Shown here: positions 6,735-53,213 of the stretch, in pieces
Numbering within the stretch: the stretch's first letter is position 1
Layout: the number at the start of each line of letters is the position of its first letter
NCBI GenBank assembly: GCA_011835815.1
Contig: GCA_011835815.1_3615.1
From: a phage
Direction: 5' to 3' (one strand)
DNA length: 64,000 bases
The notes under the pieces: generated by a model
What the model was told of the DNA's origin: nothing
The model's input: only the letters and a program-made list of their open reading frames with translations
Database searches by the model: none
Position numbers and translations under genes: made by a program

Positions 6735-7154
6735 ATGAACATTAAATCTAATAATCCGGCATATAGCTTTGATAACGCTTTTTGTCACGGTCCGGCGGCG
6801 AAAGGTTTTGAAATTGATGGTAAACTAATTATTGTCAATGTTGACGGGGAAGAGGTTGCAGTATATCCGGTGGCAGACGTAAAAAGCCGTTTGCAATGCC
6901 GCATGGATGTTACCGCCTATCAGCTTGATCCGGTCCGCATAGTTGCCCTGGTCCTGGAAGAAGAAATTAAAGCCATGCACCATAGCAACAGGTTTATTGG
7001 TGACGCACAGGATAATATGAAGGTATGCCGCCATAAAGTTAATGAAGTGCTTAAAGAATATGGCTTTAAAGATCTGATGATCAAACGTGAGGAAAAATTC
7101 CGCTACCGTAACGACCTGGCAAATCGAATCTATGAAATATACGAATCATTATAA
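6735..7154 (+). CDS. hypothetical early protein
   Basis: 139-aa ORF with AGAGG SD; promoter upstream, terminator downstream; last + strand gene before the gene desert. Confidence 0.55.
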   Translation: MNIKSNNPAYSFDNAFCHGPAAKGFEIDGKLIIVNVDGEEVAVYPVADVKSRLQCRMDVTAYQLDPVRIVALVLEEEIKAMHHSNRFIGDAQDNMKVCRHKVNEVLKEYGFKDLMIKREEKFRYRNDLANRIYEIYESL

Positions 7155-7172
7155 TTTCTTAACTAAACTATC

Positions 7173-7202
7173 AGGGGCTTTAAAAGGCCCCTTTCTTTTT
7201 GT
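7173..7202 (+). terminator. rho-independent terminator
   Basis: AGGGGCTTT-AA-AAGGCCCCT hairpin then T-run. Confidence 0.65.
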
Positions 7203-7810
7203 CTGTATTTCTCCTACCACAAACGGCCCAGCCTGGCAAGTGGAATAATTGACTAGCCATCAATCCCACACACTGTACAAACATACATGTAAAATAACTA
7301 TTGCATAATTTTTCATTGTGTGGTAGCAGGTCCATTTTTACCCGTTTTCTCTCTCAAAATTGCACGTAATGCCGCTATTGCACAAAATTTAACCTGATGC
7401 ACATCTTCAATATCTTGTCAACAACTAAAAATCTTTATAAGTCATACACTTACACACTCACAAAAGCGTGTTCTACGTGAAAAATCGAGTATAACTATAG
7501 CCGCCAGATCTCAGAATTTACGTACGCTCACCATTCTATAGTCTGCTAAGTATTTATTCCAACCATGGAATAACGGAATAGTCAATACCTGCATAAAATA
7601 ATTATTCGTGTAAACTGCATAACATAAATCAGCTTATGTGTCAACATTCTTGGTAAACAGTCCGAAATTGTAACGGTAAGTTATAATAAACAGAGAAATC
7701 TTTAGTCGTCTAATGTTTACTGTACATAACTATACTGACTGGAATCATTAGATGACTAAGAGAAAGATAAGAAATAATTAACAATACAATTATTTTATCT
7801 GTAACAATAA

Positions 7811-7984
7811 GGCAACTATGCAAACGAATGGCATGGCGCGACGGAGTCGCGACATAATATAAAAGCAGTAACCATCACCCCCGTGATAGTTTGTCTGCAA
7901 TCTATTAATCAGATCATAGTTGCCTTGTATTCAGTTAATCATGACATAATAAGCAAGGCAACTATAGATCTGCTAATAGTTGCC
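7811..7984. repeat. four copies of GGCAACTAT in alternating orientation, including a perfect 12-bp inverted repeat
   Basis: Copies near 7811(+), 7916(-), 7957(+), 7976(-); ATAGTTGCCTTG...CAAGGCAACTAT arms; also a 19-bp direct repeat TGCAAACGAATG(G/T)CATGGC at about 7819 and 8047. Confidence 0.6.
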
Positions 7985-8075
7985 CTGCTTTTATATTATG
8001 TCATATATTATTAACTTGTTAATTGTTAACTTGCTAATTGTTTTCATGCAAACGAATGTCATGGCTTATCCTATC

Positions 8076-8147
8076 TGTGTAAACAGTTAAGGTGTAAACT
8101 ATCCAGGCGTAAACAGTCTATGCGGGAACAATCTATACGTGAACAGT
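8076..8147. repeat. three copies of GT(A/G)AACAGT at roughly 31-bp spacing
   Basis: GTAAACAGT near 8076 and 8108, GTGAACAGT near 8139; a related GTAAACTA between. Confidence 0.45.
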
Positions 8148-8759
8148 GAAACATGAAATAATAACAGTCGTTATTGTGTCGAAAGTGTATAAGGTGTCAG
8201 ACAAGTTTTTCTCCTCTTTGTCAAGTGCTGCATGAAAAATTTACAATCTGGTATGGTAGCATTTTTGCGGCCCGGTTTACATTCAGTTGTGTATGTATAA
8301 CCCTTGTTGTGTGGGCGTTTAGACGTCTGGACGGTCAGAAGTCCGCAGGTTAATATCTAATCTATTGGCTGCTAACTATATCCCACACAAATAGTAAGAA
8401 ATATAATTGTTATGTGCGTAAACGGTAACTCATGTTATCAATCCCTGTATGTATCGCCAGTGGTGCGCATAATAGGTATTATGTTAAATTGCCAGTAATG
8501 ATAACTATTCTCACAATGATAGGTATTCTCATTCACTCCCACAAGATAGGTTGCAAATGTTGTGCCACTGTGTGAACGGCCTCACCTATTAATTTGCCTC
8601 ACTGCCTCGATATTTGAGAATTGTTATAAGAATGAGAAGTATTCCCATTTCGTCCGCCTGGCAGCACTCCAGTCGCTACCGGCTCCTGACAGGGAGGCAC
8701 TCCTGTTGGTCAGGTCAAAATCGGGGTAGAACTGGGCCTGTTCAGATATTTCTGGCTGA

Positions 8760-9947
8760 CTCTTCAGGTCTGTGTGGGAAAAGCCAACCTCTCCGGCGGC
8801 GGGGAGGGGGTCAATTAAAAAATTTACGGGGTATATGAAGCGCTCTTCAGGTAAGGCATGTACTATGGGATGAGACCCTCTTCAGGCAATGATATTTGTG
8901 GGTGTGATATTTGCTGGAAAGCCAGATATGACGGGACTCCCGGCGGGGCAGGGGTAGTACAGACAGGGAAAATATGGGGATGTAGTTGGGTGAATTGATC
9001 GGGCAGGTAGAGTATGGAATATGTTACAAGTATGTTAAATATGGAGGGTGAATATCTGCAGGATTTGTGTGTAAAATCAAAGACTTAAGTAGTGTTGTGG
9101 TATTTTCTATAAATAATTCAAGTTTAATAGGTAATATTTGTCTCTATCCACTTTGTGTGGTAAACAAATTCAAATGAGATTGGTTTACAAGTGTATACAT
9201 AATATACAAATTAAAGATACAAGAAACCCCCCTCCCCCTTCGGCTACCATTCACCTTTTCCTCTGACTGGTACTTAAACACTTATTCAGACTCTTCAGGT
9301 TATCACCCATATACCATATGGCAGTGACTGGTGTCCTCCGGCCCCTCTTTCGTCACCCGTCCGCTTCGCCATGCTAATGCCATAGCTAATGGTTCGGTTG
9401 TTCACCCTGTTCACTCAGGTGTATCTCTATACCCCTTCAAACCGAAGAGAACAGAAAACCCGAATTACTCGGTAAAAGAAAAGAGAAGAACTTAATTTTA
9501 TCAGGATAGGCAAGAATGTCAAGGCATGACTGCTCACTAAACAAGCAAACAGTCATGTGTGGGAGGTAAGTGATTGTGGTGGTAGGAAATTTAGTTGAAA
9601 GATGTGTTATAGGTGCTTCCAGCACTTTAGCCTGGCAGCTAATTGTGTGTCAGTCCAGCGGTTCATCCTCTACTTCACTGAAATCAATGTTCATGGTCTC
9701 TTCCCAACCATCGATCTCAGCACAAGAGTGGAGTTCTTTAGGGTTTACTCCCAAAGCCTCAGCAACAGAGTCTATATTTAACACCCCTGGCAGGTATGAT
9801 TCATCGAATTCAAGGTAAATCAGGCCACGAGTGTTGTCAGCTCCACCAAATATCTCTATCTTCATAAAATCTCCTCTGGGAATGAAAGTGTGAACAGGGT
9901 TTTATACGTTCTAATGCACAGGAATTATACACGTTTGCCTCTTCAGG
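8760..9947. repeat. dispersed 9-mer CTCTTCAGG (5 copies)
   Basis: Exact copies near 8760, 8843, 8877, 9291 and 9939, all same orientation, all in non-coding DNA. Confidence 0.5.
9650..9865 (-). CDS. small highly acidic protein
   Basis: 71 aa, rich in D/E; most promoter-distal gene of the - strand block. Confidence 0.5.
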   Translation of the reverse strand: MKIEIFGGADNTRGLIYLEFDESYLPGVLNIDSVAEALGVNPKELHSCAEIDGWEETMNIDFSEVEDEPLD

Positions 9948-50424: not shown

Positions 50425-50499
50425 GCCCTGTTAGCTTAGTGGATAAAGCAGCGGCCTTCTAAGCCGTTGACACTGGTTCGAGTCCAGTACGGGGTGCCA
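50425..50499 (+). tRNA. tRNA-Arg (anticodon UCU)
   Basis: Hand-folded cloverleaf: acceptor GCCCTGT/ACGGGGT, anticodon loop CTTCTAA, T-loop GGTTCGAGTCC, encoded CCA. Confidence 0.75.
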
Positions 50500-50629
50500 A
50501 GTTCTTTTTAATGTAGCTTACTTTAGCAGAGTAAATCTTCGGCAAGTGGCGGTAACCACTTTACCGATACCTCATAGTTAGTGGTGAGAACACTAGCTAT
50601 TTTAAAAAGAATTTAAATATTAGTATTTA

Positions 50630-50717
50630 GGTGAGTTAATTCCGTAGGGGTAGCGGGGCAGACTGTAAATCTGTTATCATTGCGATTCGGGTGGTTCGAC
50701 TCCATCACTCACCACCA
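50630..50717 (+). tRNA. tRNA-Tyr (anticodon GUA), class II
   Basis: Acceptor GGTGAGT/ACTCACC, anticodon arm GCAGA-CTGTAAA-TCTGT, long variable arm, T-loop GGTTCGACTCC, CCA; D-arm register uncertain. Confidence 0.65.
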
Positions 50718-50821
50718 AATTTATATTTTTAAATGCATAAATCATACAGATAATGGCATTGATATTTATCGTCGTTTATACTAGTCACTAACTGCTCGAA
50801 AATCAGTGTCATTATCAGTAT

Positions 50822-50912
50822 AATTTATAAAGGAGGGTAGGGAGCAATGGTGCTCAAGCGGTCTTGAAAACCGCCCCGTTGAGGATGACTCGATGATGGT
50901 TCGATTCCATTA
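50822..50912 (+). tRNA. tRNA-Ser (anticodon UGA), class II
   Basis: Acceptor GGAGGGT/ACTCTCC, anticodon arm GCGGT-CTTGAAA-ACCGC, long variable arm, T-loop GGTTCGATTCC, CCA. Confidence 0.65.
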
Positions 50913-51020
50913 CTCTCCGCCACATTGTTGACCTTGTAATTAAGCGAAAGCCGGAAGCAGAACCGGATTATCAAATGTTACAGTCGTCATCGCCGACTAG
51001 CAACATGGTCAACATACTGA

Positions 51021-51119
51021 GCTAGGTAAGCCCTTTGGCAAGGGCGAGGATTTTTAATCCTGAAAATAGACGAGGTAGTCGTTGAATACATAGGTGGTTC
51101 GATTCCATCGCCTAGCACC
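51021..51119 (+). tRNA. atypical tRNA-like gene (about 97 nt), anticodon possibly UUU (Lys)
   Basis: Perfect acceptor GCTAGGT/GCCTAGC, D-arm GCCC-TTTGGCAA-GGGC, anticodon-like hairpin GAGGA-TTTTTAA-TCCTG, canonical T-arm; but about 30 nt inserted between anticodon stem and T-stem. Confidence 0.4.
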
Positions 51120-51124
51120 TTTTT

Positions 51125-51200
51125 GCTGATGTAGCACAATCGGTAGTGCAATTGATTTGTAATCAATAGGTTGTAGGTTCAAGTCCTGCCATCAGCACCA
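51125..51200 (+). tRNA. tRNA-Thr (anticodon UGU)
   Basis: Acceptor GCTGATG/CATCAGC, D-stem GCAC/GTGC, anticodon arm ATTGA-TTTGTAA-TCAAT, T-loop GGTTCAAGTCC, CCA. Confidence 0.75.
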
Positions 51201-51201
51201 A

Positions 51202-51276
51202 GGCCCTGTAGCTGGAAGGTTCAAGCAAGCGACTCATAATCGCCAGACGGTGGTTCAATTCCACCCAGGGCCACCA
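51202..51276 (+). tRNA. tRNA-Met or Ile2 (anticodon CAU)
   Basis: Acceptor GGCCCTG/CAGGGCC, anticodon loop CTCATAA, T-loop GGTTCAATTCC, CCA; not initiator-like. Confidence 0.7.
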
Positions 51277-51287
51277 AATAGTAAATA

Positions 51288-51364
51288 CTCCGCGTAGCTC
51301 AGCTTGGTAGAGCGCCTGATTTGGGATCAGGAGGTCGAGTGTTCGAATCACTCCGTGGAGACCA
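51288..51364 (+). tRNA. tRNA-Pro (anticodon UGG)
   Basis: Acceptor CTCCGCG/CGTGGAG, D-stem GCTC/GAGC, anticodon arm CCTGA-TTTGGGA-TCAGG, T-loop GTTCGAATC, CCA. Confidence 0.75.
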
Positions 51365-52468: not shown

Positions 52469-52893
52469 TGTCTAAGATTTACGGACCGTGTTCTGAAAAG
52501 CAGAAGATGATCCTCGAAAACGATGCAGATATTTTGGTAATCGGCGGTGCCGCAGGGTCTGGCAAGTCGTTCCTCTTGCAGTTGATGCCGCTTAAAATTA
52601 TTGATGACCCCCACAGCTCTGTGGTTATGTTCCGAAGAACAACCCCACAGTTGGAAGGTGAGGGTGGGCTATGGCCTAAAGCAGTAGCTATTTATAGTGA
52701 TCTGCCTGAAAACATTAAGCCAAAGTTCAGAGAGAAGGATCATAAGTTCATTTTCCCACGGTTTGATCCGAGCACTGGCAAGTGGGATAGAAGCAAAAAG
52801 GGAGCTGTTGTAAAATACTGCCACATGGAGTATGTCCAAGATAAGCTTAACCATCAAGGTCTTGAGTACACCATGGTTTGCTTCGATGAGGGT
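52468..52893 (+). CDS. terL: terminase large subunit, exon 1 (ATPase N-terminus)
   Basis: Walker A VIGGAAGSGKS and Walker B-like MVCFDEG; reading frame is broken by a stop just after FDEG where the intron begins. Confidence 0.8.
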
Positions 52894-53213
52894 TAATTTG
52901 TAGCTCTCGTAAAACCTCCCTAATTGCGGGGAAATCTTTACTATTAATACCACCAACCTGTCATGGTAACATGATAGAGGCTTCGAAGAGAGATCGAAGG
53001 TATGGTAACAGTGTGTTAATTTAGATAATCCGCAGCGAAGCATCCGAGAGGATGAACGTTCAACGACTAGTCGAAAGACGTAGAATCAAGCGATTCGAAA
53101 CGGGAGGGTAAGCGGTTGTTGTCGCTTATAAGATATAGTCTGGTCTGCATGGAGACATGCAGCTGCCTGAAAAATGGCGGGGCAAGACTAGCGACCTTGC
53201 CCGAACATAGACG
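52894..53213 (+). other. group I self-splicing intron (no ORF) within terL
   Basis: Conserved core elements in order: P AATTGCGGGGAAA, Q AATCCGCAGC, R GTTCAACGACTA, S AAGATATAGTC; exon ends in U that can pair with internal guide GCTCTC; intron ends in G; P9-like hairpins; boundaries +/- 3 nt. Confidence 0.8.

Follow-up and report, generated by a model that had tools for sequence, protein, structure and literature searches.

What is the role of a long stretch of phage DNA that holds many short repeats and no genes? The question is raised by positions 7155-9649 (2,495 bases) of a 64,000-nucleotide window of phage DNA (NCBI GenBank assembly GCA_011835815.1, contig GCA_011835815.1_3615.1), a noncoding stretch between + strand genes that end at 7154 and - strand genes that end at 9650. 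The phage in the window is rV5-like and belongs to the genus Vequintavirus, a group of Escherichia coli phages. An earlier note, made from the letters of the window, described the stretch as a gene desert and suggested a cis-acting function for it, such as an origin, a packaging site, a genome terminus or binding sites for a phage-encoded factor. The analysis reported here supports a cis-acting function. The desert is probably the terminal region of a linear chromosome with fixed ends, the arms of which would carry cis-acting DNA for packaging and end processing.

The desert is a published but unexplained feature that has been found again, since the rV5 genome paper already draws a grey box marked 'non-coding', which 'contained no ORFs' (open reading frames), and gives it no function (PMC3606486). 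In rV5, genes 163 and 164 are the last genes of two converging transcription units; bidirectional terminators were expected between them and not found, and the local change in skew was ascribed to the direction of transcription (PMC3606486). The rV5 record has zero features annotated between ORF 164 and ORF 163. The region 7155-9649 matches 122 phage records at ~88-97% identity, all of them rV5-like Vequintavirus, and at least 80% of it is covered in 102 of the 122; blastn searches sensitive to ~65-70% identity matched no further group outside the rV5-like phages. The comparison among related phages that the earlier note had called for therefore shows a region that is conserved and not dispensable, and several of its blocks are better conserved than the flanking genes. 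The G+C content is 34-37% across 7001-8500 compared with ~43% in the flanks, and the cumulative GC skew turns within the desert region.

The position of the chromosome ends can be read from the deposited records of close relatives. In the records of HdK5 (MK373780) and Gotham (MT682716), the first 459 bases are exactly the last 459, and in both phages they map to 8200-8658 of the window. The records of EdH4 (MK327930) and ECP2303 likewise end at 8200, giving four related records in all, while the revised records of bov11CS3 and bov25_3 begin at 8658; deposits from other groups are among the records with these end points. Searches with the flanking genes also found the records of several relatives to be linearised within the desert. 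Because the records of relatives end at 8200, begin at 8658 and repeat 8200-8658, the desert is taken to hold the virion chromosome ends or concatemer junction. For the close relatives, the deposited sequences place the ends within the desert, and the genome terminus among the options of the earlier note is directly supported by the exact 459-bp terminal repeat. These relatives, which are 93-96% identical, belong to the class of phages with short exact direct terminal repeats (T7-type ends).

The terminal repeat itself has been reported before. The Gotham record annotates it as a repeat_region, and virion-read evidence in the form of sharp read starts and twofold repeat coverage has been reported for Gotham in the literature. 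Terminal repeats of 458 bp have been given for EdH4 and HdK5 (PMC6563267), and two papers give repeats of 458/459 bp for vequintaviruses. The terminal repeat and its coordinates are thus already in GenBank and in two papers, and the core identity of the region is known. In Klebsiella phage KPP-1 (MT438396), which belongs to another genus of the same subfamily, a 514-bp repeat has been described as T7-like by PhageTerm, from the same kind of read evidence (PMC9862379); this repeat also lies within a gene-poor gap flanked by convergent gene blocks. Nothing was found in the papers searched on four further points, namely that the rV5 'non-coding' box coincides with the chromosome ends, that the flanking elements keep a conserved order, that a hairpin co-varies across four lineages and that there is a candidate promoter-driven RNA.

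In the window, the direct terminal repeat (8200-8658, 459 bp) is present in a single copy, as in a concatemer junction or a collapsed assembly, between a left arm of 1,045 bp (7155-8199) and a right arm of 991 bp (8659-9649). In the virion layout, the two arms are found at opposite ends: the left arm immediately precedes the right-hand repeat copy, the right arm immediately follows the left-hand one, and both flanking gene blocks are transcribed toward the chromosome ends. Gene-poor terminal regions are normal for phages with fixed ends, so the earlier description of the stretch as unusual for a phage was overstated. A T5-like terminal repeat with an injection-stop signal, which was the first guess and for which a ~10-kb terminal repeat with pre-early genes was the criterion, was ruled out, as the phage is a vequintavirus with a 459-bp repeat that holds no gene. 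No terminal repeat was found at the ends of the ESCO5 record. The records of I29 (ON286975.1) and CM1 (MK962749.1) are ~600 bp longer in the region. A doubled terminal repeat was considered for I29 and rejected, the extra length being instead a 575-bp internal tandem duplication of window positions 8442-9016; this duplication spans the right repeat boundary and may be an assembly artefact of the repeat.

The two boundaries of the repeat also stand out in alignments. Across 12 close relatives, the terminal repeat is well conserved and the DNA just outside both of its boundaries is the most variable of the region, while the left cut context ...GTGTCA/GACAAGTTTTTCTCC (the slash marks the cut) is invariant. 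A pattern search of the IMG/VR and JGI metagenomes yielded an uncultivated sister clade (loci L005, L021, L023, L025, L026, L035, L036 and L044) that is ~67% identical to the window in the region and 84-96% identical internally (73% for one short partial pair); searches of the phage database gave no match to it. Exactly at 8659, similarity between the window and this clade breaks off, and it is found again from the left boundary motif, where the conserved ...CCTAA/CAAATTTCGCTCTTTTTGTCAACC of the sister clade is homologous to the left end of the window. As a side observation, the cut contexts read TGTCA/GAC on the top strand (8195-8202, +) and TGCCA/GGC on the bottom strand (8656-8663, -), a pair of the kind expected of one nuclease nicking opposite strands.

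Several points weigh against placing fixed ends here. The ends have been carried over from relatives that are 93-96% identical and not taken from the isolate's own DNA. The rV5 paper describes circular permutation or headful packaging (PMC3606486), the bov phages were called permuted/headful by PhageTerm in their announcement, and a 2026 paper on BpE1AUH also describes permuted/headful packaging. The likeness of the two cut contexts was spotted post hoc and the right-hand context is not invariant; a shared cut consensus TGYCA/GRC was dropped, as the 8-mer is common (16 copies in the window) and the right site varies in rV5 and Mangalyan. Recognition of the repeats by the terminase is something that we only infer, and the iterons, the AT-rich stretch and the DnaA boxes of the sister clade, described below, fit an origin at least as well.

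The most elaborate element of the left arm is a self-complementary multi-hairpin element at 7851-8002, 198 bp outside the terminal repeat. It is closed by a perfect 18-bp inverted repeat (7851-7868/7985-8002, GACATAATATAAAAGCAG / CTGCTTTTATATTATGTC), which encloses two hairpins, one small with the loop CCCC (7870-7891) and one long, formed by alternating copies of GGCAACTAT. The earlier note had seen these repeats in part. Its GGCAACTAT copies in alternating orientation are found at 7811 (+), 7916 (-), 7957 (+) and 7976 (-), with 6 copies in 64 kb against 0.49 expected; its perfect 12-bp inverted repeat around 26 bp is real (7916-7927/7954-7965); and its ATGACATAATATAA-type repeats correspond to the 18-bp closing repeat, together with 7941-7951/7994-8004. 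As single-stranded DNA, 7851-8002 folds with a predicted energy of -40.9 kcal/mol compared with -10.8 for shuffled sequences (z = -11.8). The block 7835-7884 is 96% invariant among the close relatives. A small-RNA unit running from a promoter-like stretch (8022-7995) to a hairpin (7891-7862) was considered and dropped, since the 'promoter' stretch differs among close relatives.

Counterparts of the hairpin element are present in three other lineages. In the sister clade the arms are GACATAATAACGCTGAG / CTCAGCGTTATTATGTC (fold z = -7.9), in the Septuagintavirus A7_1 they are GACACTATAAAACGAG / CTCGTTTTATAGTGTC (fold z = -3.8), and in KPP-1 they are AGCGACACAATAACACGGGAG and its exact complement, 309 bp from the terminal-repeat boundary (fold z = -11.3). 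Across the four lineages the proximal GCGACA(Y)(W)ATAA is kept, while the distal part of each arm differs between lineages and the two arms yet stay complementary. The enclosed loop measures 73-215 nt, owing to GC-rich hairpin modules inserted in some genomes. Since the loop varies so widely in length, a base-paired stem, either a cruciform or a single-stranded hairpin, is favoured over protein sites at fixed spacing, and the arms would thus act as a stem rather than as two protein sites. Whether the GC-rich double-hairpin modules (such as ACACCCGAAGGGGTGACCAAAGGTCACCTGGCATAGCCAGTGAAA) are present, and at which site, differs among genomes of both clades: they have been seen at ~8006, at ~7945 in rV5, at ~8678 in JEP1 and JeffSchatz, and inside the hairpin element in the metagenomic loci L023 and L026. 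They look like a miniature mobile or recombining insertion.

Further repeats lie on either side of the hairpin element, most of them between it and the left cut. The 19-bp direct repeat that the earlier note placed about 230 bp apart is borne out as a 19-20-bp repeat with copies 228 bp apart and 95% identical. The first copy, DR1 (ATGCAAACGAATGGCATGGC, 7818-7837, +), directly precedes a GCGCGAC-N6-GCGAC motif, and the second, DR2 (ATGCAAACGAATGTCATGGC, 8046-8065, +), is conserved in the alignment. DR2 follows an AT-rich spacer (8003-8045) with 8 G/C in 43 bases and 7/15-bp ATTGTTAACTTGCTA repeats; this spacer varies among relatives, some of which have inserted GC-rich hairpin modules in it. 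An iteron-like array at 8077-8150 (+) consists of five 15-bp units with the core GT(A/G)AAC(A/T)(G/A)T. The GT(A/G)AACAGT repeats of the earlier note are therefore real and their phasing of about 31 bp is wrong: the copies at 8079, 8094, 8109, 8124 and 8139 have a period of 15 bp, and the misreading arose because exact copies alone, which lie 30 bp apart, had been counted. From two to seven copies can be recognised in relatives, the cut lies 119-219 bp away from DR2, and in 8085-8134 only 16% of the columns are invariant. Short TGTCA-type repeats (8151-8199, +) then fill the distance to the cut; in many relatives they are spaced by ~10-11 bp. Pairs of the iteron core also occur elsewhere, at 7653/7712, 9160/9180 and 9400-9417.

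The sister clade shares the element order of the window, namely direct repeats, hairpin element, iterons, short repeats and cut. Its direct repeats (TGCAACGATAACATGGCG) are 243 bp apart, its array has the core G(T/G)(A/G)AAAC(A/T)GT in variable number, and GTATGCCT repeats with a ~10-bp phase take the place of the TGTCA-type repeats. In A7_1, the direct repeats (TTGCCAGAGTATGG), the hairpin element and a repeat array recur; its cut site has not been mapped. The cis-acting function suggested by the earlier note is supported by this recurrence of the layout in more distant lineages. The phAPEC8-type phages share DNA with the region only at its terminator. In phAPEC8 (NC_020079.1, 5479-7021; 1480-3022 of the extracted segment L013), a 139-aa gene and the terminator are followed by an unrelated 1.5-kb noncoding stretch, and this gap leads to genes in the same direction and not to a converging block.

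At the outer edge of the left arm, an intrinsic terminator (7165-7202, +) closes the + strand gene block, its stem at 7173-7192 being followed by a T-run. The sister clade retains this terminator, where its stem has another sequence, and it is annotated in the HdK5, Gotham, Murica and phAPEC8 records. Rfam 15 gave a single desert match, a sub-threshold suhB over this terminator (7139-7207; 22.5 bits against a threshold of 41). The last + strand gene (6735-7154, 139 aa, no Pfam match) is missing from HdK5, Gotham, HMD-6 and JeffSchatz, and its protein is 90% identical in phAPEC8-type phages, a different subfamily; this pattern identifies it as a presence/absence cassette beside the chromosome end. 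Further in, conserved island A (7395-7504, +) holds TGTCAACAACTAAAAATCTTTATAAG and GAAAAATCGAGTATAACTATAG and is the main stretch of the left arm that can be aligned with the sister clade, at 72% identity. It looks like a + strand promoter directed toward the terminal repeat; a simple promoter scan did not list it.

Inside the terminal repeat, a promoter-like TTGTCA-18-TACAAT (8218-8247, +) lies 19 bp from the left end and has 10/12 matches. It is invariant in the close relatives; since just TTGTCAA is kept in the sister clade, its function as a promoter is uncertain. A family of 17-nt repeats, AATGATA(A/G)(C/G)TATTCTCA, occurs at 8497, 8515 and 8631 (within 8497-8647, +), together with a cluster of ATAGGT motifs. 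The ATAGGT motifs listed in the earlier note are not enriched in the window as a whole (36 against 30 expected), whereas four copies are clustered locally in 8472-8589. Abutting the right end of the repeat is an indel-prone stretch of repeats and hairpins (8659-8734; GGCAGCACTCC... / CCTGACAGG...CCTGTTGGTCAGG), in which 30-60-bp pieces have been gained and lost among relatives; only 8% of the columns in 8685-8734 are invariant.

The right arm continues on the + strand with copies of CTCTTCAGG (8760, 8843 and 8878), G-runs (CGGCGGGGAGGGGG) and conserved island B (8870-8968), all within 8755-8968; island B and CTCTTCAGG are also kept in the sister clade. CTCTTCAGG has eight copies in the window against 0.54 expected, all eight on the + strand, and five of them (8760, 8843, 8878, 9291 and 9939) are in and just past the right arm; the motif has also been found in A7_1 and KPP-1. 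On the - strand, a sigma-70 promoter TTGACA-16-TG-TAAAAT (9522-9495) is the best match of the region (11/12 plus an extended -10) and reads toward the terminal repeat. At the same place, the sister clade has a promoter TTGCAA-17-TATAAT. Downstream of it is the most conserved block (9494-9214, -), a candidate structured RNA of ~280 nt; each of the 118 records with this block is at least 97% identical across 9235-9484. Within the block are tandem GTGAAC units (9400-9417) and, at 9472-9450, a small hairpin plus U-run; the stem of this hairpin differs between the clades.

The desert also fails to show coding capacity, as the earlier note had stated: no conserved ORF was found in 7155-9649. The 10 longest ORFs in the desert (45-74 aa) have zero PHROGs or Pfam matches, and those of at least 50 aa are disrupted in most of 11 relatives, with the exception of 9331-9495, which lies in near-invariant DNA. 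All intact ORFs sit in such near-invariant DNA and are not kept by the divergent clade, so that none is marked as a gene either by an intact frame among relatives or by a family match. A Cys-rich ORF at 8858-8998, which has a CGCDIC motif and is annotated in several records, was rejected as coding because its C-terminus is frameshifted differently in almost every relative and it can be aligned with the sister clade only with 1-bp indels. A 47-aa hydrophobic ORF (8432-8575) was also rejected as a gene, being absent from the sister clade.

How such a region might work can be considered by comparison with known junctions. The T7/T3 junction has a 160-230-bp direct terminal repeat, flanking arrays of short repeats, the phiOL/phiOR promoters and a hairpin-forming region, and T7 requires transcription into the junction. 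Like T7/T3, the desert has a short exact direct terminal repeat with one copy per junction, short-repeat arrays just outside the repeat, a hairpin-capable inverted repeat close to one boundary, and end promoters that read toward the junction with no gene downstream. Unlike T7/T3, this phage is a 137-kb myovirus that uses the host RNA polymerase, its noncoding arms are ~1 kb each compared with ~0.2-0.7 kb, and it has 15-bp iterons in variable number in place of heptamers. Its hairpin element is a predicted 150-nt three-way structure, and the region has no sequence similarity to the T7/T3 junction. The repeat boundaries are identical to those of Gotham, HdK5 and EdH4, and the placement in a convergent gene-poor gap is that of KPP-1; the records and papers of these four phages give the repeat length only, and neither the flanking architecture nor the link to the rV5 'non-coding' box. 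Like lambda cosB and the pac sites of P1/SPP1, at which the small terminase binds repeated sites next to the cut, the region has short repeated motifs directly beside a sequence-specific cut, but the ends here are of the blunt, direct-repeat type and neither cohesive nor a headful series.

The likeliest role of the region would be T7-style end recognition and repeat duplication. Mature virion DNA would start at 8200, run around the genome and end at 8658, so that 8200-8658 would be present at both virion ends and as one copy between the converging gene blocks in concatemers. The ~1-kb arms would let the packaging machinery find the junction, cut at both repeat boundaries and duplicate the repeat. 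In T7 style, the junctions may be nicked at the two boundaries on opposite strands and the repeat duplicated by strand-displacement or hairpin-primed DNA synthesis. A hairpin intermediate and the duplication of the repeat are described for T7 in a passage of PMC4281155 that cites Chung and Hinkle 1990. Recognition or processing may rely on the 15-bp iterons and short repeats at the left cut, on both 20-bp direct repeats and on the hairpin element, and the promoters in both arms that read toward the repeat may mirror the transcription into the junction seen in T7. Individual repeats may serve as packaging sites or as parts of an origin.

The main rival, which does not exclude terminal placement, is that the left arm and terminal repeat are also, or instead, a replication origin, with an initiator bound to the iterons, the spacer melting, DnaA or a phage protein bound to the repeats inside the terminal repeat, and the hairpin priming synthesis. 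Five phased iterons adjoin a spacer of 19% G+C, so that an array of at least three phased direct repeats beside an AT-rich unwinding region, as in iteron origins of plasmids and lambda-like phages, is present; extra pairs of the iteron core lie in both arms, and the strongly folding single-stranded element resembles priming signals. The presumed terminal repeat of the sister clade has a ~50-bp stretch with two to three perfect DnaA boxes (TGTGGATAA), all facing the same way (in L005 at 1693-1735 of the extracted segment, and likewise in L021, L023, L026, L035, L041 and L044). These boxes are ~250 bp from the presumed left end, a position that roughly matches that of the 17-nt repeats, the other repeat family that the window carries in its terminal repeat. 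On the other hand, a DnaA box (TTATCCACA) with at most one mismatch is absent from window positions 6999-9848, no initiator gene was recognised beside the region (Pfam gave no match to the flanking genes), the units are 15 bp compared with the ~19-22 bp of iteron origins, and the array is free to vary in copy number and sequence. The turn of the cumulative skew, which would suit an origin, falls where transcription changes direction, which is also how the rV5 authors explained it (PMC3606486). Taken together, an origin is a possible but not the favoured role. This assessment also takes into account that promoters, and not iterons, are the usual start sites of replication in phages with a T7-type replisome.

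The right arm could alternatively be a noncoding RNA locus unrelated to the ends, in which the promoter at 9522-9495 drives a ~280-nt minus-strand RNA (9494-9214) with a regulatory or host-takeover function; we consider this, too, possible but not favoured. Both clades have retained the promoter, each with hexamers of its own, and the block behind it is the most conserved part of the region. In an alignment of 18 sequences from the two clades (9494-9214, - strand), RNAalifold predicted 45 pairs, 9 of them compensatory, that is, changed on both sides, and many U-G pairs that are valid on the minus strand only. Among the predicted pairs is a 13-bp helix of a CU-rich 5' leader with a 3' GGGGGAGGGGGG run, which depends on U-G pairs; 99.5% of cells are paired compared with ~55% when partners are slid, a figure obtained on the same alignment from which the structure was derived. 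Column shuffling gives z = -3.27 for the - strand, which folds at -33.6 kcal/mol, and z = -2.41 for the + strand, at -13.8 kcal/mol. However, with effectively two independent lineages in the alignment, every compensatory change amounts to one event, and single-sequence folds are ordinary (z = -1.1 for 9494-9214 and -0.4 for another fold). Furthermore, the hairpin and U-run at 9472-9450, 15-40 nt past the predicted start, could halt transcription immediately or serve only to end the upstream gene block; the candidate has no Rfam match, no clear terminator was seen at its 3' end, and a literature search for a vequintavirus transcriptome returned nothing usable. A reading of the region as largely filler, in which decayed genes and ordinary terminators are combined with repeats that arose from slippage and recombination, is very improbable. 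The tandem arrays do vary in copy number, and parts of the region tolerate change, since small hairpin modules and an HNH endonuclease gene are inserted in some relatives. But the region is kept in the 122 matching records and mostly covered in 102, several blocks exceed the flanking genes in conservation, the element order and co-varying hairpin arms persist in lineages without alignable DNA, and the virion ends fall inside it.

Extending the favoured reading of a terminal region with packaging and end-processing arms, we tentatively suggest a chromosome-end module common to the Vequintavirinae, an idea that we hold with less confidence than the terminal placement itself. This module would comprise a co-varying multi-hairpin DNA of 130-210 nt between direct repeats, fast-evolving iterons at the cut and, across the terminal repeat, a promoter-driven structured RNA of ~280 nt, and would direct end recognition, repeat duplication and perhaps the start of replication. 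Its mechanism would be akin to that of the T7 junction and yet a separate one, and one of the clades would also recruit host DnaA.

Some other features of the window and its relatives have been observed. The HNH gene mentioned above is a 256-aa HNH_3 endonuclease ORF (L005 9716-10486, +; Pfam E = 1.6e-18) inserted in the right noncoding arm of a sister-clade phage. Elsewhere in the window, a complete group I intron lies at 52884-53162 (+; Rfam RF00028, 84 bits); a passage of the rV5 paper mentions introns in the terminase gene (PMC3606486). A tRNA cluster at 50425-51364 (+) encodes Arg-TCT, Ser-TGA, Thr-TGT, Met-CAT and Pro-TGG, with an odd ARAGORN call of a 4-base anticodon at 51021-51119 and an Rfam tRNA match at 50630-50714 that is absent from the ARAGORN output. 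Among the database records, 19 (MG0656xx) are labelled as Campylobacter jejuni phages (C7, A112b, D# and others) and are 88-99% identical to E. coli rV5-like phages in the region, which suggests mislabelled hosts or contaminating coliphages in that collection.

The terminal placement explains the absence of genes in the desert. With the chromosome ends at the 'non-coding' box, this position is the natural zero coordinate for rV5-like genomes, which have been deposited with arbitrary starts, and papers disagree on whether these genomes are permuted. It also marks DNA to keep or to use in phage engineering and in packageable vectors; rV5-like phages are among the most often isolated coliphages and are used in typing and in therapy cocktails. 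The cutting and duplication of chromosome ends have been studied in detail almost solely in T7-like podoviruses, and the hairpin, the iterons and the candidate RNA are targets for learning how these processes work in a large myovirus whose terminal repeats are short.

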